Of a DNA stretch of 64,000 nucleotides, positions 1 through 40,396 are shown piece after piece; position 1 is the stretch's first letter, and the number at the start of each line of letters is the position of its first letter. The notes under the pieces were generated by a model, which searched no databases, was not told the DNA's origin, and was given only the letters and a program-made list of their open reading frames with translations. The translations under genes were made by a program, and so were the position numbers. Origin of the DNA: Candidatus Bipolaricaulota bacterium (lineage in GTDB: Bacteria; Patescibacteriota; Patescibacteriia; UBA11705; DATKZF01); NCBI GenBank assembly GCA_035528115.1, contig DATKZF010000002.1, positions 69,751-133,750 of the forward strand, written 5' to 3'.

Positions 1-251
1 CGTCGCGCAGGACGCCATCAGAAACGTGACGCACGTGAACATTGACGCCATTCTCGCGAACCTCTTCATTTCGAATTCTCCCCCGCCGCTCGTTGCGACG
101 CGTGGAATGTTTCCGATTCTCATTCTCAGAATCTGGGAATCTCCCAAACTGTACTCGCTTCAGAGCGAAACGCTTACGGTTTGAGAGCCGAAAGGATTTA
201 CCTCTCGGCCGCTCCTCCTTGTTGATGTGATGTGATGCAGCTTCGCGGAAG

Positions 252-986
252 CTACTGGGACTTGCCCTTGTGCAGGTACAAGTTCCAATCGACCTTGCGC
301 TCGGCCGCGGCGGTCTCGGGAGCGTCTCCGCCCCCCATGACCGTCACGTTCGCGTCCTCGGCCTCGACGTTCACGGTCTTGTAGACCACGATCGTCTGCC
401 TACCGGCGGAAGGAATGTACTCCGGCCGCGGCAAGGGCATGGGCCGCGCGATGAGCTGCGTCTTCTGACGGGGACGCCGCGCGACCTGCGTGACCTTCAC
501 GCAGTCACTCTGACAGCCATCCGCCGTCGGCCGACACCGGAGCCGGTACCCTGGAAGGCACTGGCTCGGCGGGGCCGCGGTGAGCTGCACGGGTCGCTCG
601 CCGCAACCGTCGCCGAAGCATTTCTGCTCCAGCGCGTCGAGCCGCCGTCCGTGCTCCTCGATCTCCGGCTGGACGACGCCGATAGCGTCTGCCAGACGCC
701 CCACCTGGCTGGGCAGAACTTCCAACGAATGGTTGAAGTCCTGCCGCAAGGAATCGACATCGGCCATGTTCTGGGCAGCCAGCGCCGCCGTGTCTCCGAC
801 CACAGGAATCAATCCCGCAATCGAAGCGGCATTCTGGCCGCCCAGCGACCTTGCCTCCTCCGCCTTGACCCAGGCGGCGCCGCCGGTCTCGCCAACGGCA
901 GACACCCTCTGGCTGTTGTAGAACAAGTAGACCAGGACGGCGACCGAAGCCGCCGCCACCACAGCCGCCAGAATCTTTCGTCCCAT
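252..986 (-). CDS. Hypothetical membrane-anchored protein encoded in a GC-rich island. It has one N-terminal TM helix and a Cys-containing extracytoplasmic region
   Basis: ORF of 244 aa with N-terminal hydrophobic helix (ILAAVVAAASVAVLVYLF). Visibly GC-rich versus the flanks. AAGGAGG lies 7 nt upstream of the ATG (reverse complement of 987-1010). No recognisable family. Confidence 0.45.
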   Translation of the reverse strand: MGRKILAAVVAAASVAVLVYLFYNSQRVSAVGETGGAAWVKAEEARSLGGQNAASIAGLIPVVGDTAALAAQNMADVDSLRQDFNHSLEVLPSQVGRLADAIGVVQPEIEEHGRRLDALEQKCFGDGCGERPVQLTAAPPSQCLPGYRLRCRPTADGCQSDCVKVTQVARRPRQKTQLIARPMPLPRPEYIPSAGRQTIVVYKTVNVEAEDANVTVMGGGDAPETAAAERKVDWNLYLHKGKSQ

Positions 987-1228
987 GATGAATTCCTCCT
1001 TTCATGGGTTCGTAGGTTTCGTCCGTAAACTCGCCACACATCGCTTTATTCTTACCTCTAAAAATAAAACGATTTAAGGCGAGAAACCCCTTGTTTTAGC
1101 CACGATTCTGGCTATTTTATTTAACCGTTCAGTATAGCATGCTTTTAATTTTTTGTCAATACTTTAAACTCCCTTTTAAAAAACTCCAGGCGCGTTCATG
1201 GAACGCGCCTTTTAAGGTGAAAAAACTA

Positions 1229-2128
1229 CTAGATGATCATCGCCAGGAGAGCCCCGAGACCCATGGCGATGATGGAAAAGGCGATGACCTTCACCAGCAG
1301 GTCGCTGTCGCCGGAGCGATCATCGCCCTCCCCGGCCTGTCCGGCGGAGCCTTTCGGACCTTGCGGACCGACGGGACCCTGCGGACCTTCCGGACCGGCG
1401 AGTCCCTGCGGACCTTCCGGACCGACGGGTCCCTGCGGGCCTTCCGGACCGACGGGTCCCTGCGGGCCTCGGGGTCCTTCCAGACCCTGCGGGCCGGGCA
1501 CGGGTTCCGGCCTCCCCGAATCGTCTTCGACGATCGGCGGAGGCGCTTCGGGTTCTTCCGGCGGCTCCACCACACGGGTGGTGAGAGCCGCCGGATCCAC
1601 GACCGCGATGAGGCGGTGGCACCCGGGACAGATGAGCTCCTGCCCGGGCAAGGCCTGCTCCCGCGCGACCTCGATCTGCCGGTCGCAGGCCGCGCAGACG
1701 AGAGGAACGAACTCTTCGCCCTCCTCGTCGTCGCCGTCGCCACCATCCTCGTCATCGGTGGCGTCGTCGCCGTCGCCGTCGTCGTCGTCGGCTGCGTCGC
1801 CGTCGTCGTCGTTGTCCGGAGGCGGAGCATCCGCCCCCACCGGCATGTCCAAGCCGCAAACGTTGCACTGCGACGCGCCCGCGGGCACGGCCGCGCCGCA
1901 CTCGCACTTACGGCCGGAGGGCTCGGGTACGGACACGATCTCTCCTTTCTCGTTGATGCGAAATACCTGCCCGCACGTCTCGCAAATCCCCTCCGCGCCG
2001 GCGACAGCCGACTCGTCAGGGATCTCGCCCACCGCCCCGCAATCGGGGTTAGGACATTTGATCTCCATCTCTGTTTCCTTTCCCCAAATCCCATGGATTC
2101 GGGTTTTTTTATCATCCAAGTCCAACAC
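1229..2128 (-). CDS. Zinc-ribbon / collagen-like (G-P-X-G-P) repeat protein with acidic D/E tract and C-terminal TM anchor. Likely true start at 2068 (MEIKCPNP)
   Basis: Translation shows three CxxC...CxxC ribbons (CPNPDCG...CETCG; CECG...CNVCG; CAACD...CPGC). It also shows a long D/E/G-rich acidic stretch and about 12 tandem GP(E/Q)GP(Q/V) triplet repeats typical of collagen-like Gly-X-Y. The C-terminus is hydrophobic ([23 protein letters not shown]). Alternative-frame ORFs 1233..2156(+) and 1291..2151(-) are low-complexity artefacts of GC richness. An RBS-like GGAAAGGAAAC lies before the internal ATG at 2068. Confidence 0.6.
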
Positions 2129-8663: not shown

Positions 8664-9046
8664 GGGGATGATCGGCTTCGACGGGAGTCCTGAAATCAAA
8701 AGCGCGAAATGAGCTGTCAGCCGCTCATTAAACTGCTGGCAAATCCAATAAGTGCAACAAATGTACTGGCGAAAGTCAAAAGCTTATTTCAAGCTCCGGC
8801 TTTTGCTCCCGTTCTTGCCTAAAAGTGAGAACCGTCCGCTTGCCGATACTCGATGAGCAAACCGGACGTCAATATCGAGTTAGGCCGTCGCCATGCCAAA
8901 AGCGCCGACTGAAATAAAACGGCTCGGCCCGCTCGGAGTTTCGTTTATCTTTAATCCGGCGGTCTTAAATGATAAGATAAACTATTTTCGTAGATGCTTT
9001 TTATTTCAACTTCCAGACGCGGGTTCGATTCCCGCCATCTCCACCA
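8664..9046 (+). ncRNA. ssrA: tmRNA (SsrA)
   Basis: The 5' end GGGGATGATCGGCTTCGACGGG matches the canonical tmRNA 5' acceptor/D-arm consensus (GGGG..G.TTCGACGGG). The 3' end ACGCGGGTTCGATTCCCGCCATCTCCACCA is a tRNA-like T-arm plus acceptor with encoded CCA. The 5' GGGGATG pairs with 3' CATCTCC. It sits directly after smpB. The tag-peptide reading frame was not confidently identified. Confidence 0.85.
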
Positions 9047-11188: not shown

Positions 11189-11265
11189 GGATCGGTGGTG
11201 TAGCTGGTTAACACGCCGCCCTGTCACGGCGGAGATCGCGGGTTCGAGTCCCGTCCGATCCGCCA
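11189..11265 (+). tRNA. tRNA-Asp (anticodon GTC), CCA encoded
   Basis: Cloverleaf read by hand. The acceptor is GGATCGG/CCGATCC, with D-stem GTGT/ACAC. The anticodon stem is CCGCC/GGCGG with loop CTGTCAC (U33, GTC, A37). The T-arm is GCGGG-TTCGAGT-CCCGT, the discriminator is G, and CCA follows. It is flanked by the complementary ATTCAGGCTG / CAGCCTGAAT leader-trailer pairing. Confidence 0.88.
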
Positions 11266-30171: not shown

Positions 30172-31464
30172 TCAAAATCTCTTACTCTTTGGTTTAATCG
30201 ACTGCACGCCAGTGTATGCATGCAGGACATCGGGAATGAGCACTGACCCGTCAGCCTGCTGGTTATTCTCAAGAATGGCAAGAACCACGCGAGTAATTGC
30301 GACCGCCGTTCCGTTGAGTGTGTGTACGAATTCATTTTTGCCAGTTGCGCTATTCCTGAACTTGATGTTCAGTCGACGCGCCTGGAAATCCGTACAGTTT
30401 GATGCGGAGGTTATTTCGCCATACCCGCCTCCCTCGCCGATGCAGGGCATCCACGCTTCGATATCATACTTCCGGTAAGCAGGGGTTCCCAGCTCCCCCA
30501 TACACATAAGCAACACGCGGTAGGGAATCTTCAGATCCTGGCAAAACTCTTCCTCTATCGAAAGTATCTCTTCATGAGCGGCTGCACTCTTCGAGGGATG
30601 CACAAATTGATAGAGCTCCACCTTGCTGAACTGATGCACGCGGTAAAGCCCCCTGCTCTCGCGTCCTCCGCTGCCAGCTTCGGTCCTGAAGCAATGGCTA
30701 ACACCCGCGACCTTGATTGGCAGATCTTCTTCCGAAATCACGGCATCCGCCATGTAACCACCAATGGTGATTTCGGAAGTCCCGATGAGACTCATTCCCC
30801 CTTCAGTCAATGAATAGATCTGACTCTCTGGTCCCCGAGGAGAGAACCCTGAAGCGGTGATAATCTCGTCTCGAACAAGTTCTGGCGTCGTCATTGGAAC
30901 GAAGTCATACTTGAGCGCAAGCTCAAGCGCGTAACGGATGAGCCCCAACTCCAAGAGCACTGCCTCGTTCTTAAAAAAGTAGAACTTGGAGCCAGCGACT
31001 TTCCCCGCAGCCTCAAAGTCCAGGATATCCAGACTCCTGCCGAGTTCGATATGATCGAGCGGCCTGAAGCCGAATTTAGTAGTCTCTCCGACGAATCTGA
31101 TAGCGACGTTGCCTTTCTCGTCCTTACCTTGCGGCACATCCGAAGCAGCAAGGTTCGGGATTTTCCTTGCCTCCCCAAGATACTCCTTCTCGACAACCGC
31201 GATTTCCTGCTTGAGGGAAGCTATGGTTTTCTTGAGATTAGCAACCTCCAACTTGAGCCTTTCTTGAGTTGCACCATCGGCACTCTTGAACTGCCCGGAG
31301 ATCTGATTAGATCGGTGCAAAGCCTCTTCGAGACTCCGCCTCTTCTGTTTTGTTTGCTCGTAGAGAGCAACAACCTGGTCGACGTCAGCCTTGGCATAAC
31401 GCTCCTGCGTATTCTGCCTCACCAAATCGATGTTTCTGAGAATGAATCTAATGTCCAACATCAT
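30172..31464 (-). CDS. serS: Seryl-tRNA synthetase (full length, with N-terminal coiled-coil arm); composition is more GC-rich than the core genome
   Basis: 430 aa. Class II motifs are present: FRTEAGSGGRESRGLYRVHQFSKVE (motif 2) and GGGYGEITSASNCTDFQARRL (motif 3). AAGGAG lies 5-8 nt upstream of the ATG. Confidence 0.9.
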   Translation of the reverse strand: MMLDIRFILRNIDLVRQNTQERYAKADVDQVVALYEQTKQKRRSLEEALHRSNQISGQFKSADGATQERLKLEVANLKKTIASLKQEIAVVEKEYLGEARKIPNLAASDVPQGKDEKGNVAIRFVGETTKFGFRPLDHIELGRSLDILDFEAAGKVAGSKFYFFKNEAVLLELGLIRYALELALKYDFVPMTTPELVRDEIITASGFSPRGPESQIYSLTEGGMSLIGTSEITIGGYMADAVISEEDLPIKVAGVSHCFRTEAGSGGRESRGLYRVHQFSKVELYQFVHPSKSAAAHEEILSIEEEFCQDLKIPYRVLLMCMGELGTPAYRKYDIEAWMPCIGEGGGYGEITSASNCTDFQARRLNIKFRNSATGKNEFVHTLNGTAVAITRVVLAILENNQQADGSVLIPDVLHAYTGVQSIKPKSKRF

Positions 31465-31591: not shown

Positions 31592-32938
31592 TTGACGATA
31601 ATTTATAAATATTATACGTTGCATTACACCATCATAGTTAGTACATTAACAAAAATCCACCATTGGGAGATAGACCAAATGGATAAGGAAAACGTACATA
31701 TTTTCTCGGCAGGAACACCCTGTATCGATGATGCGGAATTTGAAGTAGTAGAACGTAAAGGAATCGGCCATCCAGACACGCTCTGCGACACAATCGCTGA
31801 AAAGGTATCTCAAGCGTATGCTCAGTATTCTCTGGAACGCTATGGCATCATCTTGCGGCACATGGTTGATAAAATCGCACTGTCAGGAGGGGCTGCGAAG
31901 GTCAAATTCGGCGGCGGTGAAATGAATGAGCCAATCAGGCTTTATCTAAATTGTCGCTTCACCAGGAGATACCAAGAAGAAACAATCCCGTATCTGGAGA
32001 TTGTCAAAAGCACAGTATACAACCATCTCAAAGCTGTGCTTCCATTACTGGATCTTGATCGGTGGCTCATGATTGTTGACAATACTCACTTTTCTCCAGG
32101 TCCTGGCGTTGTCTACGAAGCTGACGGATCAACGCAAAACGAACGTCAGTTTTTCTTCGAGATCCCGCAGAAAGAATTTGCCATATTTCACGACAACAGC
32201 CTTCGTGCCAACGACACATCCACGGCTGTCGCATATAGCCCTCTTAGCACTACGGAAAAGATAGTAATATTAATCGAAACAACATTAAATGGATCGGAAT
32301 TCAAAAAACGACATCCCTATGTGGGTACAGACATTAAAGTCATGGCTAGACGCATAAAAAAACGCATAGCCATTACGGTTTGCATTCCTTTTGTTGCTAT
32401 CTACACGCCAACCAAAGAATTCTATACCGAAAAACTCAGATTACTGCAAGATGTGATCAGACAACTGGTAATCTCAAGTTTCGGGCAGTTAGATGTTACT
32501 GTCTCGCTCAACACGAGGGATAATCCGAGCAAATCAGATTATTACCTCACCCTAACAGGGAGCGCAATCGAAAGCGGTGACGAAGGAGTGGTTGGGCGAG
32601 GAAACCGGTACAATGGGGTCATTCCCTTTACCAGGCACATGAGCATGGAGGCTTGCTGTGGCAAAAACCCTGTCTACCACGTAGGCAAGGTGTACACGGC
32701 AATCTGCTCCCTTATCTCCGAGGAAATCTTCAAGCTCATAGGGATTGAGGTGTACGTCTACCTCACTTCACAAATGGGTAGAAGTCTATCAGATCCATGG
32801 TTGGCCTGTGTTGAGGTCTGCGGTGGAAACGTAACTTCTGTTCAACGCCAAATGATTGAAGCAATCATCGAGAGCAACCTCGCCAGTGCCAACGAAGTTA
32901 CTAAAAAGATCGTTAACGGAGAACTCAATTTATACTGA
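31592..32938 (+). CDS. Archaeal-type S-adenosylmethionine synthetase (MAT); likely start at the ATG at 31679
   Basis: FEVVERKGIGHPDTLCDTIAEKVSQAY matches the archaeal MAT N-terminus (VERKGLGHPDSICDGIAE in Methanocaldococcus), not bacterial MetK (SEGHPDK). GDEGVVGRGNRYNGVI matches the archaeal GRGNR motif. Confidence 0.7.
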   Translation: MTIIYKYYTLHYTIIVSTLTKIHHWEIDQMDKENVHIFSAGTPCIDDAEFEVVERKGIGHPDTLCDTIAEKVSQAYAQYSLERYGIILRHMVDKIALSGGAAKVKFGGGEMNEPIRLYLNCRFTRRYQEETIPYLEIVKSTVYNHLKAVLPLLDLDRWLMIVDNTHFSPGPGVVYEADGSTQNERQFFFEIPQKEFAIFHDNSLRANDTSTAVAYSPLSTTEKIVILIETTLNGSEFKKRHPYVGTDIKVMARRIKKRIAITVCIPFVAIYTPTKEFYTEKLRLLQDVIRQLVISSFGQLDVTVSLNTRDNPSKSDYYLTLTGSAIESGDEGVVGRGNRYNGVIPFTRHMSMEACCGKNPVYHVGKVYTAICSLISEEIFKLIGIEVYVYLTSQMGRSLSDPWLACVEVCGGNVTSVQRQMIEAIIESNLASANEVTKKIVNGELNLY

Positions 32939-32980
32939 AAATTGCAACTTTCGCGCCTGTGTCACAGATACGGGCTCTTT

Positions 32981-33676
32981 TTATAGATTAAATAATCCTC
33001 CTGAACTAATATCTGTCTTTACCCCAGTGGCAGAATATATCGTACAGAATCGCTCTCCAATACATGATGCGACATTATTTTCTATAATCATACCTGCTCC
33101 TTCAGACAAACATACAATAGGCAAATTGTTATTCATTGCCCATGATTTAAAACGATTGTTCTGATTATTCTTAAAATGACATGCGACAGAAAAATCATGT
33201 AAAAGGTTTAATCCTGCATTATCTTGTAATCCTATCTTATTTTTGTCATCTTGAGTATCAATTCTTTTCCCCAAAATAATTGCTCCTGCACTTCCTCCAT
33301 ATACTTGCCCTCCTGATTTATAGTATTTAATCAATGCGTCAGCAAAACCTGAGTTTTTGAGTTCATCCATTAAATCCCACGTATTACCTCCGCCTATATA
33401 AATGCCGTTAAAATTTATTAAATAATTAAATTTATATTTAGAAGGATCATCAATTACCTCAAACTGAATATCATCTCTCTCATGAAGTTTAATAACGCTA
33501 TTCATCCACAAGCGCACTGTGAGATAAATCTTAGAATCACGAAGAGCAATTGGCACATATAAAAAACGCCCATTTACAGGCAATGTGCTAAAAAAAAATT
33601 TGTCAAGGAGGAATGATTGTTTCTCATTGCCACCCCCCGACAAATATATTCGGTTTTTCTCCTTTATTTTTTGCAT
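32981..33676 (-). CDS. Peptidase family S51 protein (PepE / cyanophycinase-like dipeptidase)
   Basis: The N-terminus has a YLSGGGNE motif, and the central YIGGGNTWDL and GGSAGAIILG motifs match the S51 Ser-nucleophile context. The stop overlaps the start of the next gene by 13 nt. Confidence 0.55.
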   Translation of the reverse strand: MQKIKEKNRIYLSGGGNEKQSFLLDKFFFSTLPVNGRFLYVPIALRDSKIYLTVRLWMNSVIKLHERDDIQFEVIDDPSKYKFNYLINFNGIYIGGGNTWDLMDELKNSGFADALIKYYKSGGQVYGGSAGAIILGKRIDTQDDKNKIGLQDNAGLNLLHDFSVACHFKNNQNNRFKSWAMNNNLPIVCLSEGAGMIIENNVASCIGERFCTIYSATGVKTDISSGGLFNL

Positions 33677-34851
33677 GTTTGTATCGCTCTACGTAGCTCG
33701 CAAATGTTGATTTTATGAGCATACACCAAGCGATTAAAATAGTCTTCCGTCGTTTCGTCGCGAGGTTGCGGCAGATTTAGCTTCTTGCAAACCCTCAGGT
33801 TAATGAACCTTTCAATTTCCAGCCGTGCCAACTGAACGGCGGATTCTCTAGAAACGAACGGGGTAAGGAACTGACCCCAGTAATCGAAATAGTACAACAG
33901 GATACGGAATAGATTCTTGTCAAAATACTTCTCACTGAGCATTTTGGCGATACGTCTGAACTGAAGACCAGGCCCCTTGTTTGTCGCTTGTACCCCACAC
34001 AATACGATGAGTGACAACGTTCGGTACAAGTCGAACATTTCCCTTGCCCCATCTGATGTCCCAGGAATCAACAAATCGAAGTAAGAATCGGTCTTATTTA
34101 TTGCCCAGGCAATTCTCTCAAGACCAAACCCAACATCGCTAATGGGAATCGACGCTCGATTTGCTTGAGGTATCTGCATGTAAGCAGCGTCCCCAAGCTC
34201 AAGTCCTCCATAAGAGAAAAAAAGCTCCAGCGCGGAAAACTGGCCCGTTCCCCAATCATTGGCAGATGTTCTCATGACAACGATGAAATCATTCATGTGA
34301 AGGCCAAGCCTTGATAGCATCGTGCACCAGCAATCTACTATCTGCAAATGCTCGTCAAGGGTGGCTCCCATCTTCTCGGTACACACATTTACAAAAGAAG
34401 TGGAAGTCCCGTTTTGTGACTCGACATATGGCTGAAATTGCATGCGTACACAGGGCTGGGAGACGAATAGCTTACATTCCCGTGTCTGCTGACCTTTATG
34501 TATGACGTCGTCAAACATCTGCACACCAGCCACCACAAGGTCGGTTTGCCCCTCTAAATTTGCTATCTTTAGAGGAGGAGACAGTTTGAAGCCGGACGAA
34601 ACAAAGTACTCTCTCATCATTGCATTGATTTTTGCAGGGGGCAGCATTTTCTTTCGCTTTGAGAAATTAAGAAAAGCTAATACCCTCTTATCGCACTGAT
34701 GCCAACCGCAGCTTGAGGTCTCTATCTTGGCTAAACGCTTAAAGAAAAAAGTCCTCCCACAACCTTCGCAAGCACGGACTTGCCACCCTCTTTTCACCAT
34801 GAATTCGCTTACGACACCAGCAAGATCACAGGTCTTCATCTTTTCAGACAT
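33664..34851 (-). CDS. Stand-alone alanyl-tRNA-synthetase catalytic-domain paralogue with N-terminal Zn-ribbon-like CxxC/C..C segment
   Basis: SQPCVRMQ aligns with AlaRS QKC(I)RAG, and TSFVNVCTEKMGA with HHTFFEMLGN. FGLERIAWAIN aligns with the AlaRS GLERI motif. The protein is only 395 aa, with no tRNA-binding, editing or C-Ala domains. The N-terminus has CEGCG and a separated CGWHQC pair. Confidence 0.55.
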   Translation of the reverse strand: MSEKMKTCDLAGVVSEFMVKRGWQVRACEGCGRTFFFKRLAKIETSSCGWHQCDKRVLAFLNFSKRKKMLPPAKINAMMREYFVSSGFKLSPPLKIANLEGQTDLVVAGVQMFDDVIHKGQQTRECKLFVSQPCVRMQFQPYVESQNGTSTSFVNVCTEKMGATLDEHLQIVDCWCTMLSRLGLHMNDFIVVMRTSANDWGTGQFSALELFFSYGGLELGDAAYMQIPQANRASIPISDVGFGLERIAWAINKTDSYFDLLIPGTSDGAREMFDLYRTLSLIVLCGVQATNKGPGLQFRRIAKMLSEKYFDKNLFRILLYYFDYWGQFLTPFVSRESAVQLARLEIERFINLRVCKKLNLPQPRDETTEDYFNRLVYAHKINICELRRAIQTCKK

Positions 34852-35027
34852 GGATAAATCTCCAGTTATAATTTTAATGTACTACCAATATAATTTAACG
34901 ACAATTAGCGATTTTGTCAAACGCCACTTTTCCACTTTGCCTTCAGCGATTAATTTGCTAAAATTATACTGCCGATAAAACAGAAAGCCGCCCTTTCTGT
35001 TTCTCTATCTATTCACCATAAAAACAT

Positions 35028-35858
35028 ATGACTCAATTCGACCGACTCTATCGCGACGGGATTTTAAAAATAATGAACGAAGGCTTTGAAGAGTACAACG
35101 AGCGCACCGGACACAGCTGCAAAATCATTCCGGGCCTGACTTTTGAACTCGACAACGGCTTCCCTCTTTTGACTTTAAGAAAAATTCCCATCAAAATTTT
35201 CGTGGCCGAACAAATCTGGTTTATCATGGGCTCGAAAAACCCGGACGACTACGTCAATAAATTCACTCAAATCTGGAAAGACTTCACCGAAGAAGACGGC
35301 ACTATTCCGGCCGCTTACGGCTATCGCTGGCGAAAAGCTTTCGGCAGGGATCAATTGAAATTGTTGATTGAACATTTGGCCGGCCAGCCGGGCTCTCGGC
35401 ACGGCGTGATCATCACTTGGGATCCGCGAGAAGACGGCCTGGGCAATCCGGAAAGTAAAAAAAACGTGCCCTGTCCCTACACTTTCACGGTCAACATCAT
35501 CGGCAATAAATTGCATATCCACAGCGTGGTCAGATCAAACGACATGATGCTGGGCTGTCCGCATGACGTGGCCGGCTTTGGAGTTTTGCAAGCCATTTTG
35601 GCGGCCAAGCTGGGCGTCAAACCCGGCAAACTCACCCACACCATCAGCAACGCGCACATTTACGACACGCATTATCGGCAAGCCTGGGAATTGGTCGAGA
35701 GAGAAAACAACCATCCCAATATCTATCTAGAGGCTCAACCCGATTATTTCGATCGCGCGGAAAAAGGAGACGAATCCTTGGTGGCTGAAATCGCGGGCAA
35801 ATTGGAAGCGCAATATAATCCGCTGGGACCGATTAAAGGAATGAAAATTGTTTTATAA
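35028..35858 (+). CDS. thyA: Thymidylate synthase (ThyA-type)
   Basis: 276 aa. The ThyA fold is recognised around RHGVIITWDPREDG and the catalytic Cys context (VPCPYTFTVNIIGNKLHIHSVVRSNDMMLGCPHDVAGF). Confidence 0.8.
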   Translation: MTQFDRLYRDGILKIMNEGFEEYNERTGHSCKIIPGLTFELDNGFPLLTLRKIPIKIFVAEQIWFIMGSKNPDDYVNKFTQIWKDFTEEDGTIPAAYGYRWRKAFGRDQLKLLIEHLAGQPGSRHGVIITWDPREDGLGNPESKKNVPCPYTFTVNIIGNKLHIHSVVRSNDMMLGCPHDVAGFGVLQAILAAKLGVKPGKLTHTISNAHIYDTHYRQAWELVERENNHPNIYLEAQPDYFDRAEKGDESLVAEIAGKLEAQYNPLGPIKGMKIVL

Positions 35859-35879
35859 AGAAAATAGTCGGCATGGCAT

Positions 35880-36070
35880 AAAGTTGTGTTACGAATTACA
35901 AGAAACTAATAAGCTTACAGGTTATCTGTTACGAATTACAAGATTCTGTTTAGCTTTTAGGTGATTTGTTACGAATTACAATATTCTTAGGCATAAAGCT
36001 ATAGGTTCATGTACTTCGTAACAATACAAACTAAGAGCTATTTAGTGAATGTAATTCGTAACAAATCCTC
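35880..36070. repeat. Cluster of short dispersed repeats of the TTGTAATTCGTAAC / GTTACGAATTACAA word family (4 copies) between thyA and folA
   Basis: gttacgaattacaagaaac, ctgttacgaattacaagattc, gatttgttacgaattacaatattc and gaatgtaattcgtaacaaatcc are read directly. The same word recurs at 28571-28640, 38735-38920 and, in degenerate form, at 39630-39720 and 40560-40597. Confidence 0.7.
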
Positions 36071-36079
36071 ATTGAATAT

Positions 36080-36595
36080 ATGAACATAACACTAATGATG
36101 GCCATCACGGCTGATGGAAAAATCGCCAAAGACGAATCGCATTTGGCTGACTGGACGTCCGTCGAAGACAAAAAACTTTTCGTTGAAAAAACCAAAGAGG
36201 CCGGCGTAATTATCATGGGCCGAAAAACTTTTGAAACCATTGGCAAACCTCTGCCGGGCAGATTGAATTTGGTCATTACTTCTCAAGCCAAGGAAAAACA
36301 AGGCCAAGCCATTCCCGGCTCACTGGAATTCACGGATCTATCGCCCAAAGAAATAATCGAAGAATTGAAAAACAAAGGATTTAAAAATGCGATTCTCGGC
36401 GGCGGCGCGGCGATCAATTCCCTTTTCCTTGAACAAAACCTGATTGATGAAATAATGTTGACGGTCGAGCCGAAAATTTTCGGTAGCGGACTGAATCTAT
36501 TCAACAACGTAAAAACCGATTTGAATTTGCGGCTTTTGGAAATAAAAAAAATAAACGAAAACGCGGTGAATTTGCATTATCAAGTCATAAAATAA
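36080..36595 (+). CDS. folA: Dihydrofolate reductase
   Basis: 171 aa. MMAITADGKIAKDESHLADW...LFVEKTKEAGVIIMGRKTFETIG...LNLVIT follows the DHFR pattern. Confidence 0.82.
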   Translation: MNITLMMAITADGKIAKDESHLADWTSVEDKKLFVEKTKEAGVIIMGRKTFETIGKPLPGRLNLVITSQAKEKQGQAIPGSLEFTDLSPKEIIEELKNKGFKNAILGGGAAINSLFLEQNLIDEIMLTVEPKIFGSGLNLFNNVKTDLNLRLLEIKKINENAVNLHYQVIK

Positions 36596-36602
36596 TAACA
36601 AT

Positions 36603-37259
36603 ATGCTGCTCGACAAAAAAACATTGCTCGATTTGCTCAAAGAAAACAAAATTACCTTCGAACCGAACCTCGATGGTTTTCAGATTCAACCCAATTCAAT
36701 CGATCTTCGGCTCGGCCATTCGTTTTACATTCCGGTTTCTTGGAAATTAAATGAACAAGGCCGGGTGGCCATGTCAGCCGATTACCTTGATTACCACGCG
36801 CCGCAGGATAAACTGCAATTGATCAAATTAAAACCCGGACAATATTTCGAAATTTTACCGCATGAATTCATCATGATTTCCACTTTGGAAAAAATCAGTT
36901 TGAATAACGACAATATCGTGGGCAACCTGCAGCCTCGAAGCACGGCCCTAAGACGCGGTTTGCAAATCACGGGCGGCGCGGTCGATGTTCATTACAGCGG
37001 ACATTTGATCATTCCCATGGTCAATAACACCAACCACATTTTAAGGCTTTATCCGGGCGAGCGCATTTGCCAATTGCAGTTTTTCGAATTAAAGTCGCCG
37101 CTCAGCGTCGAAGAAGCCAAAAAGCACGGTCTGCAAGACGCCAAATACAATGAAGCCACTCCTTACGGTCTGGAAGCCAAGTCCGACAGCCAGGAAGAAA
37201 TCGACTTGATCAAGGCGGGCAAAATCGACGAGCTGAAAAGCAAATATCAAAATCTATGA
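36603..37259 (+). CDS. dcd: dCTP deaminase (dUTPase-superfamily)
   Basis: 218 aa. The PNSIDLRLG motif is present, and ...GGAVDVHYSGHLIIPMVN... belongs to the dCTP deaminase/dUTPase fold. Confidence 0.7.
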   Translation: MLLDKKTLLDLLKENKITFEPNLDGFQIQPNSIDLRLGHSFYIPVSWKLNEQGRVAMSADYLDYHAPQDKLQLIKLKPGQYFEILPHEFIMISTLEKISLNNDNIVGNLQPRSTALRRGLQITGGAVDVHYSGHLIIPMVNNTNHILRLYPGERICQLQFFELKSPLSVEEAKKHGLQDAKYNEATPYGLEAKSDSQEEIDLIKAGKIDELKSKYQNL

Positions 37260-37738
37260 GCGATTCAATAGTTTATCCTTATCTGCCCGAAGGCAAGAAA
37301 ATCCTTTATGTTCCCGAGAACAATATTTTTATTCGCGCGGCTCAAGAAATTCGAGACAATGATTCCACTGACTTGATGAATCCCACCGGCGCCGTCATTG
37401 TCAAAAATGAAACCGTAATTTATCGCTCGGCGAATAAAGCCAAGCTTGAAAACCCGACTTTGCTTAAACTTCATTCAAAATACTGCGTGAGAAGAATTTT
37501 AAGAATTCCCAGCGGCAAAGGCTATTTTCTCTGCCCTGGCTGCGCCGACCACAAACAGCACGCGGAATTCCGCGCTGTATCGCAAGCGATTAAAGAAGGG
37601 CTGGACGTTCTCGACGCGGATCTATATTTGTATGGGCATTGGTGGTGTTGCGAGTCTTGCTGGAATAAAATGATTGAGCACGGCATTAAAGACGTATATC
37701 TTTTGGAAAACGCTCACGCGATTTTCGCCAGAAAATAA
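37256..37738 (+). CDS. dCMP deaminase (ComEB/cytidine-deoxycytidylate deaminase zinc-binding family)
   Basis: The HAEFRAV (HAE) and CPGCADH (PCxxC) zinc-binding motifs are present. The start overlaps the dcd stop by 4 nt. Confidence 0.72.
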   Translation: MSDSIVYPYLPEGKKILYVPENNIFIRAAQEIRDNDSTDLMNPTGAVIVKNETVIYRSANKAKLENPTLLKLHSKYCVRRILRIPSGKGYFLCPGCADHKQHAEFRAVSQAIKEGLDVLDADLYLYGHWWCCESCWNKMIEHGIKDVYLLENAHAIFARK

Positions 37739-37754
37739 TAATCAATATCATCTT

Positions 37755-38324
37755 ATGAACAAAATAATTTTCGGTTTTGTCGGCGAAATCGCCAGCGGCA
37801 AAGGCACGGCTTGCGATTATTTGATCAATAAATACGCGGCCGGTTATCATCGCTACTCCACTATTTTAAGAGACATAACGGATCGTTTGTATTTGGAACA
37901 AAGCCGCGAAAACCTGCAGGACCTGTCAACCATTTTAAGAAACCGCTTCGGACAGGATTTGTTCGCTCAGGTCATGGCCAAAGAAGTCGAGGACGATCCG
38001 GCGGAAATAATCTGCGTGGACGGCATCAGGCGGCCCGATGACATTATTCATTTGAAACAATTGCCCGGGTTTATTCTGGTCAGTATCGTTGCGGACATGA
38101 AAACGCGCCATAAAAGAATCGTGGAACGCGCGGAAAACACGGATGACCAAATCAAAACATTTGAAGAATTCAAAAAAGACCATGAGAACGAAAATGAGAA
38201 AAGCATTCGCGTTGTCGCGCAAGACGCCAAAGAAAAAATAGACAACAACGGCTCTCATGACAAACTGTTCGAGCAAATCGACAGCTTGGTGGAAAAATAT
38301 GAAGATAAAAATAAGCAGAATTGA
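37755..38324 (+). CDS. P-loop nucleoside/nucleotide kinase (dNK/CoaE-like)
   Basis: The Walker A motif is GFVGEIASGKGT. It is about 190 aa and sits inside a dNTP-metabolism operon. Start placed at the internal ATG at 37755. Confidence 0.5.
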   Translation: MNKIIFGFVGEIASGKGTACDYLINKYAAGYHRYSTILRDITDRLYLEQSRENLQDLSTILRNRFGQDLFAQVMAKEVEDDPAEIICVDGIRRPDDIIHLKQLPGFILVSIVADMKTRHKRIVERAENTDDQIKTFEEFKKDHENENEKSIRVVAQDAKEKIDNNGSHDKLFEQIDSLVEKYEDKNKQN

Positions 38325-38733
38325 TAAAACCCTGCCATTGCCGAAATATCAAACGGCCGGTTCGGTCGCTTTTGATTTGTATTCTCGAATCGACAAGGAA
38401 ATTCCCGCGCGATCAATCGACAAAGTGCCGAGCAATCTGATTATCGAAGTGCCGGCTGGATTTGCCTTAATCATTGCCAATCGATCAAGTCTGACCGCTA
38501 AAAAAGGCCTGACCATGTCAAACAACATCGGCATCATCGATCAAGATTTTTGCGGATCTGAAGATGAAATAAATTTAAGTCTTTATAACATTACAGACGA
38601 GCCGGTAAAAATCAAACGCGGCGAACGGCTCTGCCAAGCGCTCTTGGCGCCCGTTGAAAAAGTCGACTTCGAAGAAGTCGAAAAAATTTCCGACAAATCG
38701 CGAGGCGGCTTCGGATCTACAGGCGATTCATGA
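38299..38733 (+). CDS. dut: dUTP diphosphatase
   Basis: MKIKISRIDKTLPLPKYQTAGSVAFDL aligns with the E. coli Dut N-terminus. The five dUTPase motifs (AGSVAFDL, RSSL, IDQDFCGS, GERLCQ, RGGFGSTG) are present. It overlaps the upstream kinase by 26 nt. Confidence 0.85.
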   Translation: MKIKISRIDKTLPLPKYQTAGSVAFDLYSRIDKEIPARSIDKVPSNLIIEVPAGFALIIANRSSLTAKKGLTMSNNIGIIDQDFCGSEDEINLSLYNITDEPVKIKRGERLCQALLAPVEKVDFEEVEKISDKSRGGFGSTGDS

Positions 38734-38734
38734 A

Positions 38735-38920
38735 ACATTGTTACGAATTACAATATTCTATTTGGCTTTTAAACGGTTGTTAAAAAGTACATTCACTTAT
38801 AGCTTTATTCCTAAAAATATTGTAATTCGTAACAGATAACCTAAAAGCTAAATAGAATATTGTAATTCGTAACAAATAACATAGAAGCTAAATGGAATCT
38901 TGTAATTCGTAACACCCCCT
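38735..38920. repeat. Cluster of 4 copies of the ATATTGTAATTCGTAACA word-repeat family downstream of dut
   Basis: attgttacgaattacaatattc, aatattgtaattcgtaacagataacc, aatattgtaattcgtaacaaataac and aatcttgtaattcgtaacaccccc are read directly. Confidence 0.7.
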
Positions 38921-38998
38921 AATTTAATATTTAAAATTAAAAAAGAGCCAAGTCTGACCTGGCTCTTTTGGGCCTAACGTCGTTATCGCGACGGATCT

Positions 38999-39421
38999 CT
39001 AGCCGATCGCCGAAATCGGCTCGCGGTCGTCGCAGATGGCCTCGACCGCGCGGGAGATTGCCCACGCCCACAACGCGGCATAGGCAGGCAGGATAAGGTG
39101 CCGGAAACCCTGGCGATCGCGAATCGGCTGCGGCTCATCCAGATTGTGATTGACAGAAACCACCAACAGCGGGATCTCCTGCCTGATCGCCGCCTGGTGA
39201 ATCTCCAAGACGAGCGGCGTGAGCATTCGATGCTCCCGCCCCCATTCCGCGAGGATGACGAGATCGACTCCCGGAGGCAAATTGATGCCTCCATTGTCGA
39301 GCTGAGCTCGCAGCTCCCGCTCGTCAATGTAGTCGAAATCTTCCTTCAGACACTCTCGACACCATGCTTGCGCGCTTCCGGCCGCGGCCCGATTGTATCC
39401 AATCACCAACACATTCGGCAT
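38999..39421 (-). CDS. GC-rich orphan hypothetical protein with alternating beta-alpha (flavodoxin/Rossmann-like) pattern
   Basis: 140 aa. VLVIGYN...DLVILAEWG...PLLVVSV hydrophobic strands alternate with helices. A G-rich RBS lies upstream. A bidirectional terminator hairpin sits at 38941-38975 (AGAGCCAAGTCTGACCTGGCTCT). Confidence 0.4.
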   Translation of the reverse strand: MPNVLVIGYNRAAAGSAQAWCRECLKEDFDYIDERELRAQLDNGGINLPPGVDLVILAEWGREHRMLTPLVLEIHQAAIRQEIPLLVVSVNHNLDEPQPIRDRQGFRHLILPAYAALWAWAISRAVEAICDDREPISAIG

Positions 39422-39751
39422 TGTCCACCCCCCTCAGTCATCAATAGTTGCGGTGTTCACCCGTTTTCTCGGGCAATATTATATGTTTACTACGAAAAGA
39501 TGATTTTGTCAATAACATGAACGGTTAACTAATTAAAGTAGTTAGAGTAGTTTAAACGATTAATGATTATTTATACCAATTCAATTTATAATAAACATAA
39601 CACCAAGCCAAACTTATCAGCTGCTGTAATTTGTAACGTATTTGTAATTATTGGTAATAAATCAATAAAACCTAAATATAACTTATCTTTTTGAATGCAA
39701 TTATTTGTAATTTATGATAAAATAAGCTAAACGCATATCTAACATAAAAAT

Positions 39752-40396
39752 ATGTCAGGAAAATTCATTGTCTTTGAAGGCGGAGAAGGCACGGGAAAAA
39801 CCACGCAAATCAAACTTTTGGAAGAACAATTGAAAAACGCGGGCTATCAAACTCTTTTAACCAGAGAACCCGGCGGAACGGATTGTCCGATCGCGGAAAA
39901 AATCAGAACACTGCTTAAAGACCCGGCCAATAAAGAAATGATGCCTGAGACCGAATTATTTTTGTTTTGCGCGTCGCGCGCTCAGCATGTCAAACAAATC
40001 ATCAGACCGAAAATGGATCAAGGAACGATCGTTATTTGCGACAGATTTCAAGGCTCCTCTTTCGCCTATCAGCATTTCGGCAGAGGCCTGTTCGATTTGA
40101 ATAAAGTCAAAGAAATAAACGGCTTTGCCACGGGCGGCCTGAATCCCGATCTGACCATACTTTTGGACATTGACCCGAAAATCGGTTTGGCCAGAGTGGA
40201 AAACGGCCAAGATAGAAATAATTTAAAAGACGACCGCTTTGACGCGGAGAAAATCGAATTTCACGAAAAAGTCAGGCAAGGTTATTTGTCTTTGGCGAAA
40301 ACCGAAGTCAATTGGGTAGTCATTGACGCGGATGATACGATTGAAAATATTCAGAATAAGATTTGGCAAGAGATTAAGAAAATTCTAATGGTATAA
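39752..40396 (+). CDS. tmk: Thymidylate kinase
   Basis: FIVFEGGEGTGKTTQ P-loop; LLTREPGGT; DRF(Q) motif (CDRFQGSSFAYQ). Confidence 0.9.
   Translation: MSGKFIVFEGGEGTGKTTQIKLLEEQLKNAGYQTLLTREPGGTDCPIAEKIRTLLKDPANKEMMPETELFLFCASRAQHVKQIIRPKMDQGTIVICDRFQGSSFAYQHFGRGLFDLNKVKEINGFATGGLNPDLTILLDIDPKIGLARVENGQDRNNLKDDRFDAEKIEFHEKVRQGYLSLAKTEVNWVVIDADDTIENIQNKIWQEIKKILMV

Follow-up and report, generated by a model that had tools for sequence, protein, structure and literature searches.

Synthetase-derived enzymes that work outside translation, such as MshC, PoxA, AsnA, the amino acid:carrier-protein ligases (aaCPLs) and AcmF, have each revealed new chemistry. MshC is the Cys:GlcN-Ins ligase of mycothiol biosynthesis, the synthetase paralogue by which the amino acid is added in that pathway, and the aaCPLs, PoxA/EpmA and AsnA are further ligases derived from aminoacyl-tRNA synthetases (aaRSs). 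In ascamycin biosynthesis, AcmF is a truncated protein resembling alanyl-tRNA synthetase (AlaRS), consisting of the aminoacylation and tRNA-recognition domains only, which is reported to have lost activation residues (N219Q, D232E) and uses Ala-tRNA-Ala as the donor to alanylate an adenosine analogue at its sulfamate nitrogen; clustered with it are AcmD, an AlaRS copy that makes Ala-tRNA-Ala and provides self-resistance, and AcmE, a hydrolase that removes the alanine (Zheng et al., ACS Catal 2024; reviewed in PMC12945691). Shortened forms of AlaRS itself have been described from Tupanvirus (a mini-AlaRS of 461 aa; PMC10036535) and from bacteria of the Candidate Phyla Radiation (CPR) and DPANN archaea (a small-AlaRS with catalytic, tRNA-latch and editing domains; bioRxiv 10.1101/2023.05.29.542759), indicating that a catalytic plus tRNA-recognition core can stand alone. 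Here we analyse a stretch of 64,000 nucleotides from a metagenomic bacterial contig (DATKZF010000002.1, positions 69,751 to 133,750; hereafter the window) that encodes a 395-aa protein, ALA-like, related to the N-terminal half of archaeal AlaRS. With a probability of roughly one half, we read it as an AlaRS-derived amino-acid ligase acting on a non-tRNA acceptor, which arose from an archaeal-type AlaRS by C-terminal loss, the lost part being everything beyond the first half of the tRNA-recognition domain. ALA-like would thus probably make a small molecule rather than serve protein synthesis.

According to the listing of open reading frames (ORFs), the gene runs unbroken on the minus strand; the plus-strand frame of the same interval, 33664-34851, was rejected, its translation being full of stops. 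The gene and its parts are:

33664..34851, minus strand: ALA-like, AlaRS-derived paralogue of 395 aa, with an ATG start and GGAG about 10 nt 5' of it; assigned by AlaRS homology
34684..34785, minus strand: N-terminal Cys4 Zn-ribbon, residues 23-56 (C28, C31, C48, C53); assigned by alignment to archaeal AlaRS
34066..34641, minus strand: class-II catalytic core, residues 71-262; assigned from 53 family members against four canonical AlaRSs and from the AlphaFold2 model
33667..34065, minus strand: C-terminal basic helical domain, residues 263-395, pI 9.5; a shortened AlaRS tRNA-recognition domain (Mid1/ATL-like)

ALA-like is an AlaRS homologue, and specifically one of the archaeal type. Pfam tRNA-synt_2c does not match the protein and no curated family model passes its threshold, the NCBIfam AlaRS models giving 30 bits against a cut-off of 744.7 for the archaeal TIGR03683 and 17 against 457 for TIGR00344. 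By phmmer against PDB sequences, A. fulgidus AlaRS was matched over residues 16-267 (E=6e-5), and this match improved to E=9e-11 with a profile of 35 family members, which also matched the AlaRSs of P. horikoshii, E. coli, Methylomonas and A. aeolicus. A preliminary description of this DNA, made from the letters alone, had proposed comparing a predicted structure with AlaRS: in a Foldseek ranking of an AlphaFold2 model built on the family alignment (mean pLDDT 87.9, pTM 0.87), archaeal AlaRS came out on top (E=9e-16, TM 0.68 query-normalised), followed by N-terminal fragments of bacterial AlaRS and, in third place, GlyRS-alpha. The three AlaRS landmarks which that description had recognised also align where it had placed them, QPCVR(136) with QxCxR69, STSF(153)VNVCTE with HHTFF90EMLGN and SDVGFGLER(246) with VDTGMGLER242. 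The N-terminal part of archaeal AlaRS (A. fulgidus 2ZTG/3WQY, P. horikoshii 2ZZE) is the best match in both structure and sequence, and shares with ALA-like the Cys4 Zn-ribbon, the class-II catalytic fold and the start of the helical tRNA-recognition domain, whereas ALA-like stands apart in its length of only 395 aa, its identity of about 17-19% and its scores far below the AlaRS model cut-offs. A comparison of the family profile with the CPR small-AlaRS by hhalign gave a weak local match (probability 19%, residues 166-309) that is usable for the PSN motif only. Bacterial GlyRS alpha (GlyQ) was considered as an identity and rejected, since the protein passed neither Pfam tRNA-synt_2e nor NF006827 and GlyQ was not the closest structural neighbour.

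The domain architecture bears out part of what had first been supposed and corrects the rest. The four Zn-ribbon cysteines, invariant in the family alignment A1, have direct counterparts in CPKCGKHFW...CG..C at the N-terminus of the A. fulgidus and P. horikoshii enzymes; the CxxC...C..C segment, previously taken for an extra, matches the archaeal AlaRS N-terminus residue for residue and, as judged from these alignments, is an inheritance and no addition. The core holds motif 2 (QPCVR136), STSF153VNVCTE, W200, the pocket strand G220-D221-A222-A223 and motif 3 (SD239VGFGLER246). In the AlphaFold2 model, residues 263-395 form six helices, and their beginning, REMFDxxRTLxLxxLCGVxAxNKGPGLQFRR, aligns with stretches of E. 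coli AlaRS and CPR AlaRS with which the tRNA-recognition domain of these enzymes begins. The Asn of a "PSN" motif (N291 in the window protein) is kept in 36/53 family members and corresponds by alignment position to A. fulgidus Asn359, which we take to be a reader of the G3:U70 base pair. In AlaRS, a conserved Asn and a conserved Asp read G3:U70 (PMC10036535). The region of the second reader (LYDTYGFP in E. coli) is not alignable, and the ALA-like domain is about 60-70 residues shorter. By domain, the pI is 9.8 at the N-terminus, 5.0 in the core and 9.5 at the C-terminus. The chain stops inside the helical domain, at residue 395, and has neither an editing domain (HxxxH/CxxxH; no tRNA_SAD match) nor C-Ala. 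ALA-like is therefore an AlaRS truncated inside its tRNA-recognition domain rather than a bare catalytic core: the preliminary description was right in seeing a truncated AlaRS-derived paralogue devoid of editing and C-Ala domains, and went too far in denying it a tRNA-recognition domain, of which a truncated form is kept. Its remark that the protein is less than half the length of any AlaRS does not hold in view of the 461-aa viral mini-AlaRS (PMC10036535) and of a small-AlaRS of about 600 aa on the related contig L032, discussed below.

For the active site, 53 family members were aligned with four canonical AlaRSs (E. coli, NC_000913; the CPR small-AlaRS of L032; fragments from A. fulgidus and P. 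horikoshii), and conservation was scored at positions identical in all four. The residues kept are, in E. coli AlaRS and window numbering:

Q65, window Q132: kept in 53/53
R69, window R136: kept in 53/53
F90, window F153: kept in 53/53
W170, window W200: kept in 52/53
E209, window E218: kept in 46/53
D235, window D239: kept in 53/53
G237, window G241: kept in 51/53
G239, window G243: kept in 53/53
L240, window L244: kept in 52/53
E241, window E245: kept in 53/53
R242, window R246: kept in 53/53

In the AlaRS complex with ATP and alanine reported in 2025, the adenine lies sandwiched by the Phe of motif 2 and the Arg of motif 3, the alpha-phosphate is bound by the motif-2 Arg, Asp235 binds the alpha-amino group, and the alanine methyl is contacted by a conserved Val, V214 in E. 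coli (PMC12143591). Conservation of the residues that bind alanine and ATP had been proposed as a check; the motif-2 Arg, the adenine-stacking Phe, the motif-3 Arg and the Asp for the alpha-amino group are all invariant (53/53), so that the complete adenylate-binding set is kept, and with it, we infer, an adenylate-type chemistry. The side-chain pocket has fared differently. Residues universal in AlaRS are replaced throughout the family (E91 by V/I, M92 by N155 in 51/53, D76 by F/Y), the pocket strand W/A-N/T-I/L-V has become G220 (53/53), D221 (49/53) and A222 (47/53) followed, at the position equivalent to V214, by a variable small residue (A, S, V, G or N) that is often smaller than Val. 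A further residue, Q111, is invariant in the family (53/53) and specific to it, and R85 and H86 of the E. coli motif-2 loop are replaced by G/T. The pocket is probably larger and more polar than that of AlaRS, with a gained acidic residue, which makes alanine unlikely as the substrate.

In the window, the neighbouring genes are the following:

32981..33676, minus strand: S51-family serine hydrolase (S51) of 231 aa, downstream of ALA-like; Pfam Peptidase_S51, E=1.8e-21
31679..32938, plus strand: archaeal-type methionine adenosyltransferase (MAT), that is, S-adenosylmethionine (SAM) synthetase, of 419 aa, with an ATG and a GGGAGA ribosome-binding site; Pfam AdoMet_Synthase, E=4.9e-107
30172..31464, minus strand: seryl-tRNA synthetase (SerRS) of 430 aa; Pfam Seryl_tRNA_N and tRNA-synt_2b

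S51 lies directly downstream of ALA-like on the same strand, its ATG placed 13 nt before the end of the ALA-like ORF, inside ...ACATGCAAAAAATAA, where the ALA-like stop is TAA. An overlap of 13 nt had been seen before and does exist, although it had been placed at the start of ALA-like with S51 upstream, whereas S51 is the downstream gene and overlaps the ALA-like stop. The same -13 nt overlap recurs in many loci, the others mostly having an overlap or a gap of a few nt, and one natural ALA-like-S51 fusion (P0194, 568 aa) carries S51 C-terminal to the helical domain; the recurrence and the fusion speak for the co-translation that had been suggested. Neighbours were found by clustering ORFs across loci and counted where ALA-like has at least 4 kb of flanking sequence on either side, which holds for 26 loci; 23 of these contain S51. 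In the S51 protein, GGS129AGA, H167 and E192, which we take to form a Ser-His-Glu triad by analogy to PepE, are invariant in 38-40/40 orthologues, the serine standing in the GxSAG context expected of an S51 peptidase. In two loci (L045, L046), S51 is fused to a GT1 glycosyltransferase.

The locus of the fusion, L052, is a side observation in its own right, as the stretch downstream of it (L052:13497-18977) is unusually rich in synthetase paralogues. It holds two adjacent ProRS-like genes, one of 409 aa and a much more divergent one of 389 aa, a UbiE-type methyltransferase, a 373-aa protein resembling AsnA or an AsnRS core and devoid of an anticodon-binding domain, and an S66 peptidase (MccF/LD-carboxypeptidase family).

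ALA-like is a rare accessory family and no universal gene. About 200 clusters at 90% identity were retrieved, devoid of Pfam domains or names and mostly from metagenome-assembled genomes (MAGs) of Patescibacteria/CPR, with proteins of about 395 aa that are 50-70% identical; in an exhaustive search of 1.84 billion representatives with the family profile, 495 clusters (50% identity) passed E<=1e-3, and 242 passed E<=1e-30. When GTDB was scanned with one genome for each species, 49 loci emerged, across which identity drops to 26-33%. By their record titles, these come from CPR bacteria, from the DPANN groups Nanoarchaeota, Woesearchaeota and Micrarchaeota, and from a small number of MAGs bearing the labels Bacillota, Clostridia or Gammaproteobacteria. 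The protein identical to that of the window (P0001) is annotated "hypothetical protein" (VMX18_01840) on a contig of 762,837 bp; the family is uncharacterised and has no Pfam or NCBIfam model, and our literature search found nothing describing it or a pairing of an AlaRS-like protein with MAT. The window contig was deposited as "Candidatus Bipolaricaulota bacterium", the closest relatives of P0001 are all from Patescibacteria, and related third-party-annotation MAGs are labelled Gammaproteobacteria or Woeseiaceae (L034, L035, L045, L047), an inconsistency that suggests mis-binning or mislabelling.

Direct evidence of paralogy comes from L032, a 31-kb contig of a Patescibacteria MAG, where a bacterial-type AlaRS of 598 aa (25-1821, plus strand; Pfam tRNA-synt_2c, E=4e-125, and tRNA_SAD) lies 8 kb from the ALA-like gene. 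This AlaRS is 40% identical to E. coli AlaRS over residues 23-440 and 43% over 575-698, no other region being matched; it has catalytic, tRNA-recognition and editing domains and lacks the beta-barrel and C-Ala, and the contig also carries the module of ALA-like, MAT and S51. A small-AlaRS composed of catalytic, tRNA-latch and editing domains has been reported for CPR and DPANN (bioRxiv 10.1101/2023.05.29.542759). Because ALA-like coexists with a small-AlaRS on L032, and because the family is rare, it is on that contig a paralogue and not the housekeeping AlaRS. In the 64-kb window, no AlaRS was found by tblastn with E. coli AlaRS.

One could nevertheless suppose that ALA-like is a genuine minimal AlaRS that charges tRNA-Ala, as a duplicate or a replacement, with S51 acting in trans or as a fused partner in the role of an editing factor replacing an AlaX-type domain. 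A minimal enzyme of catalytic and tRNA-recognition domains can be fully functional, as the 461-aa viral mini-AlaRS demonstrates (PMC10036535), the adenylate-site residues are conserved, S51 in P0194 occupies a place C-terminal to the helical domain like that of the AlaRS editing domain, and the search for a canonical alaS covered the 64-kb window. We consider this highly improbable, given that E91, M92, D76 and Val214, identical in bacterial and archaeal AlaRS, are replaced family-wide, that the protein reaches 30 of the 744.7 bits asked for by NCBIfam and has no Pfam tRNA-synt_2c match, that the second G3:U70-reading Asp is not alignable, that the family is rare, that a small-AlaRS is encoded beside it on L032, and that members are embedded in clusters of aminosugar type. 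The mini-AlaRS and small-AlaRS, likewise shortened, keep the canonical motifs 1-3 and charge tRNA-Ala, whereas ALA-like is shorter still and has a remodelled pocket; the small-AlaRS moreover keeps an editing domain and bacterial-type insertions, unlike the ALA-like protein encoded beside it on L032.

Among the neighbours, the linkage of ALA-like to an archaeal-type MAT is near-obligate; like the SerRS neighbour, the rebuilt pocket and the CPR/DPANN distribution, it had escaped the preliminary description. In the 26 well-flanked loci, neighbours other than S51 occur as follows:

MAT: 25/26
SerRS: 10/26
GT1: 7/26
radical SAM: 4/26
S66 peptidase: 3/26

In the window, the MAT gene is convergent with the ALA-like/S51 operon, an arrangement (MAT downstream of S51) that is one of three; elsewhere MAT lies directly upstream in the same direction, at a distance of 1-13 nt (L032, L033, L038, L043, L045, L046, L049, L064), or, in L055, downstream and overlapping by 4 nt, and a few members have no MAT nearby (L056/L057, L060). 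The window MAT shares about 40% identity with the P. furiosus enzyme (6s81), to which its catalytic motifs GHPD, ANDTS, GDxGxVGRGNR and KNPVxHVGK align, and matches PF01941 over its full length. Compared with the P. furiosus enzyme it carries some 20 inserted residues, and it reaches none of the NCBIfam equivalog cut-offs (329 against 553).

The constancy of this partner raises the prospect that ALA-like is a SAM-utilising enzyme or a SAM-linked regulator built on the class-II synthetase fold: SAM might be adenylated and ligated, it might act as a mimic of an aminoacyl-adenylate that donates an alkyl group (e.g. 3-amino-3-carboxypropyl), or the protein might be a HisZ-like regulatory partner of MAT. 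SAM-activating adenylation domains of non-ribosomal peptide synthetases occur in colibactin biosynthesis, and HisZ is a regulator derived from HisRS. MAT is the most constant neighbour, often 1-13 nt away or overlapping in independently rearranged operons, the pocket strand now has tiny residues and an invariant Asp221 that could pair with a sulfonium or an amine, and a link to SAM chemistry is also seen in the methyltransferase fusions and in the radical-SAM genes nearby. Yet SAM binding is only putative, the MAT looks like an ordinary archaeal enzyme that may supply radical-SAM enzymes or methyltransferases or be the only MAT of the cell, MAT is missing beside a few members, and the invariant motif-2 and motif-3 arginines are what would be expected for ATP use; on balance such a role seems distinctly unlikely. 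The same low standing is given to a more far-reaching version, a long shot in our judgement, in which SAM is the substrate, either adenylated and ligated or donating its alkyl or aminocarboxypropyl group as an aminoacyl-adenylate mimic, the product is a new glycoside or cyclitol metabolite common to CPR and DPANN, and S51 is a built-in "editing" or release domain.

SerRS is the next most frequent of the neighbours listed, and was found in 23 of the 58 loci used for this count, in at least 7 arrangements and lineages including an archaeal locus (L030); co-directional SerRS>ALA pairs with gaps of 23-57 nt occur among others in L036 and L058. Mirror-tree correlations of ALA-like identities with those of S51, MAT and SerRS are high (rho 0.70-0.97), values in which co-transfer is inseparable from the shared species phylogeny, and SerRS, with an identity of about 35% when CPR loci are compared with archaeal ones, gave no sign of a cross-domain block transfer. 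A search with ARAGORN in 49 loci revealed no recurrent dedicated tRNA beside the module.

An AcmF-type transferase is the main rival to a ligase. ALA-like would then have no activation of its own; an aminoacyl-tRNA, e.g. Ser-tRNA made by the neighbouring SerRS or Ala/Ser-tRNA-Ala, would be bound via the helical domain and its aminoacyl group moved to a small-molecule amine in the former ATP site, with S51 as an AcmE-like remover of the aminoacyl group. The architecture fits the description of AcmF, with aminoacylation and tRNA-recognition domains only, and the ascamycin cluster likewise encodes an aaRS copy of its own and a hydrolase for de-aminoacylation (PMC12945691), paralleled in ALA-like loci by SerRS and S51. 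The number and variety of the SerRS arrangements, the co-directional pairs, the basic terminal domains, the "PSN" Asn in 36/53 members and the loss of R85/H86 from the motif-2 loop point the same way. AcmF is reported, however, to have lost most residues that bind ATP and alanine (including D232E), which, comparing AcmF by its description only, contrasts with the invariant R136, F153, D239 and R246 of ALA-like; AcmF moreover comes from Streptomyces and descends from bacterial AlaRS, in contrast to the archaeal-type ALA-like with its Zn-ribbon, and the neighbour of ALA-like is SerRS and not AlaRS, its constant partner being a SAM synthetase. Loci are not accompanied by a dedicated tRNA gene, SerRS is absent from 16/26 well-flanked loci in which MAT is nearly universal, and recognition of tRNA-Ser would be surprising in an acceptor-stem domain of the AlaRS type. 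Since the family keeps the activation residues and descends from archaeal AlaRS, we rank the AcmF-like mechanism below the ligase and regard it as unlikely, if the most serious of the competitors.

What the ligase may act on is suggested by the more divergent members, whose gene clusters look biosynthetic. One cluster (L039) consists of MAT, myo-inositol-1-phosphate synthase, ALA-like, GT1 and S51, and another (L043) of MAT, ALA-like, a histidine phosphatase, a radical SAM protein and S51. L054 holds methyltransferases, a polysaccharide deacetylase, GT2, GT1, an ALA-like-methyltransferase fusion, a radical SAM/SPASM protein, MAT, a second radical SAM protein and a DegT aminotransferase; L055 has a class-III aminotransferase, a GFO/IDH/MocA oxidoreductase, an ALA-like fusion, MAT and GT1. 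In L064, MAT, ALA-like, radical SAM, DegT and GT1 form a tight operon to which SerRS is convergent, and in L058 the S66 and S51 peptidases are divergent from SerRS, ALA-like, radical SAM/SPASM and MAT. Among representative proteins with a C-terminal fusion (loci L054 and L055), P0213 and P0214 carry a class-I SAM-dependent methyltransferase, and P0207 has a C-terminal extension of about 290 aa with no Pfam match. Inositol-phosphate synthase or dehydrogenase, aminotransferase, GT4-type transferase and deacetylase are building blocks of aminocyclitol/aminoglycoside and mycothiol-type pathways. The genomic context of the homologues thus favours the small-molecule, non-tRNA role that had been proposed for the protein. 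In the close CPR relatives, including the window, only ALA-like, S51, MAT and SerRS are adjacent and the aminosugar/cyclitol genes are not, the other side of the window module being taken up by a gene set for dTMP synthesis.

Three other searches of the neighbourhoods were without result. Anti-phage defence was rejected, as PADLOC gave no match for ALA-like, S51, MAT or S66 and only a generic radical-SAM similarity to viperins; all NCBIfam matches of the radical-SAM neighbours lie far below the cut-offs; and no recurrent cluster of small proteins was found among ORFs of at least 60-70 aa in the 58 loci. An aaCPL of the SerRS-like kind was likewise rejected, as no recurrent small carrier gene emerged among those ORFs and the core is of the AlaRS type, not the SerRS type.

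Under the favoured reading, ALA-like would perform the ATP-dependent activation of an amino acid other than alanine, expected to be larger, polar or cationic, with serine or a methionine/SAM-derived amino acid as candidates; the latter is speculative, and is put forward because the pairing of MAT with ALA-like persists where no radical-SAM or methyltransferase gene is adjacent, and because the pocket strand is small and acidic. The activated amino acid would be passed to a non-tRNA acceptor, probably an amino-sugar/cyclitol-type or SAM-derived molecule, and S51 would hydrolyse or proofread the aminoacyl product, occupying in the fusion the position of the AlaRS editing domain. We liken this logic to that of MshC because the neighbours of the divergent relatives would make aminosugars or aminocyclitols. 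In MshC-like ligases, too, a truncated synthetase paralogue forms an aminoacyl-adenylate and passes the amino acid to a nucleophile other than tRNA, and the gene set of the mycothiol pathway matches those neighbours (inositol-phosphate synthase, GT1/GT4-type glycosyltransferase, phosphatase, deacetylase). MshC is, however, a paralogue of the class-I CysRS, and the other ligases derive from SerRS, LysRS and AspRS, so that homology to ALA-like is limited to the class-II fold; none of MshC, the aaCPLs, PoxA and AsnA is coupled to a SAM synthetase or to S51, and the ALA-like family has no associated carrier-protein gene.

Several observations weigh against a ligase and temper our confidence in it. 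A tRNA-dependent mechanism would be as good an explanation for the basic helical domain with its "PSN" Asn and for the recurrent SerRS, and the loss of the motif-2 loop Arg and His could mean that ATP use is weakened. The coupling of a ligase to a hydrolase of uncertain bond specificity is not self-explanatory, and as close CPR relatives lack aminosugar/cyclitol genes next to the module, the acceptor suggested by the divergent clusters may not apply to these. Mechanistic steps beyond the binding of an adenylate-like ligand are ones that we infer, and paralogy, seen directly on L032 alone, is presumed for the genome of the window.

ALA-like, which CPR bacteria and DPANN archaea have in common within a module that joins it to a SAM synthetase and a serine hydrolase, keeps 50-70% identity in many ultra-small CPR genomes, where each gene is costly. 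Assigning its substrate would give a function to hundreds of proteins and could reveal a new metabolite or surface modification of episymbiotic microbes, and it would illustrate the re-tooling of an AlaRS active site that retains adenylate chemistry. The MAT-ALA-rSAM-DegT-GT1 operon of L064 offers a concrete set of genes amenable to heterologous expression.

Around the operon and elsewhere in the window, the following elements were recorded:

34892..34920, minus strand: match to a sigma-70-like promoter, TTGACA-17-TAAATT, 40 nt 5' of the ALA-like start; from a consensus scan, a pattern match only and not above background
32955..32975, no strand assigned: GC-rich hairpin with a T-run after it, in the space that separates the convergent MAT and S51 genes; from a consensus scan, a pattern match only
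8664-9046, plus strand: tmRNA with tag peptide ATNVLAKVKSLFQAPAFAPVLA; from the RNA gene scan of the window
11189-11265, plus strand: tRNA-Asp(GTC); from the same scan

From its sequence and position, the hairpin with its T-run is likely a bidirectional terminator. An Rfam scan of the window gave the tmRNA and one tRNA as its only RNA elements. Divergent from ALA-like, a complete thymidylate/dNTP module occupies 35028-40396 on the plus strand and comprises, by Pfam, ThyA, a DHFR/RibD_C protein, a dCTP deaminase-like protein, a dCMP deaminase, an AAA_17 kinase, a dUTPase and a thymidylate kinase. GC content rises locally to 0.58 at 39000-39499, the window as a whole being at about 0.45; in the same place, a 140-aa ORF on the minus strand (38999-39421) that has no Pfam match breaks the plus-strand row of nucleotide-metabolism genes.

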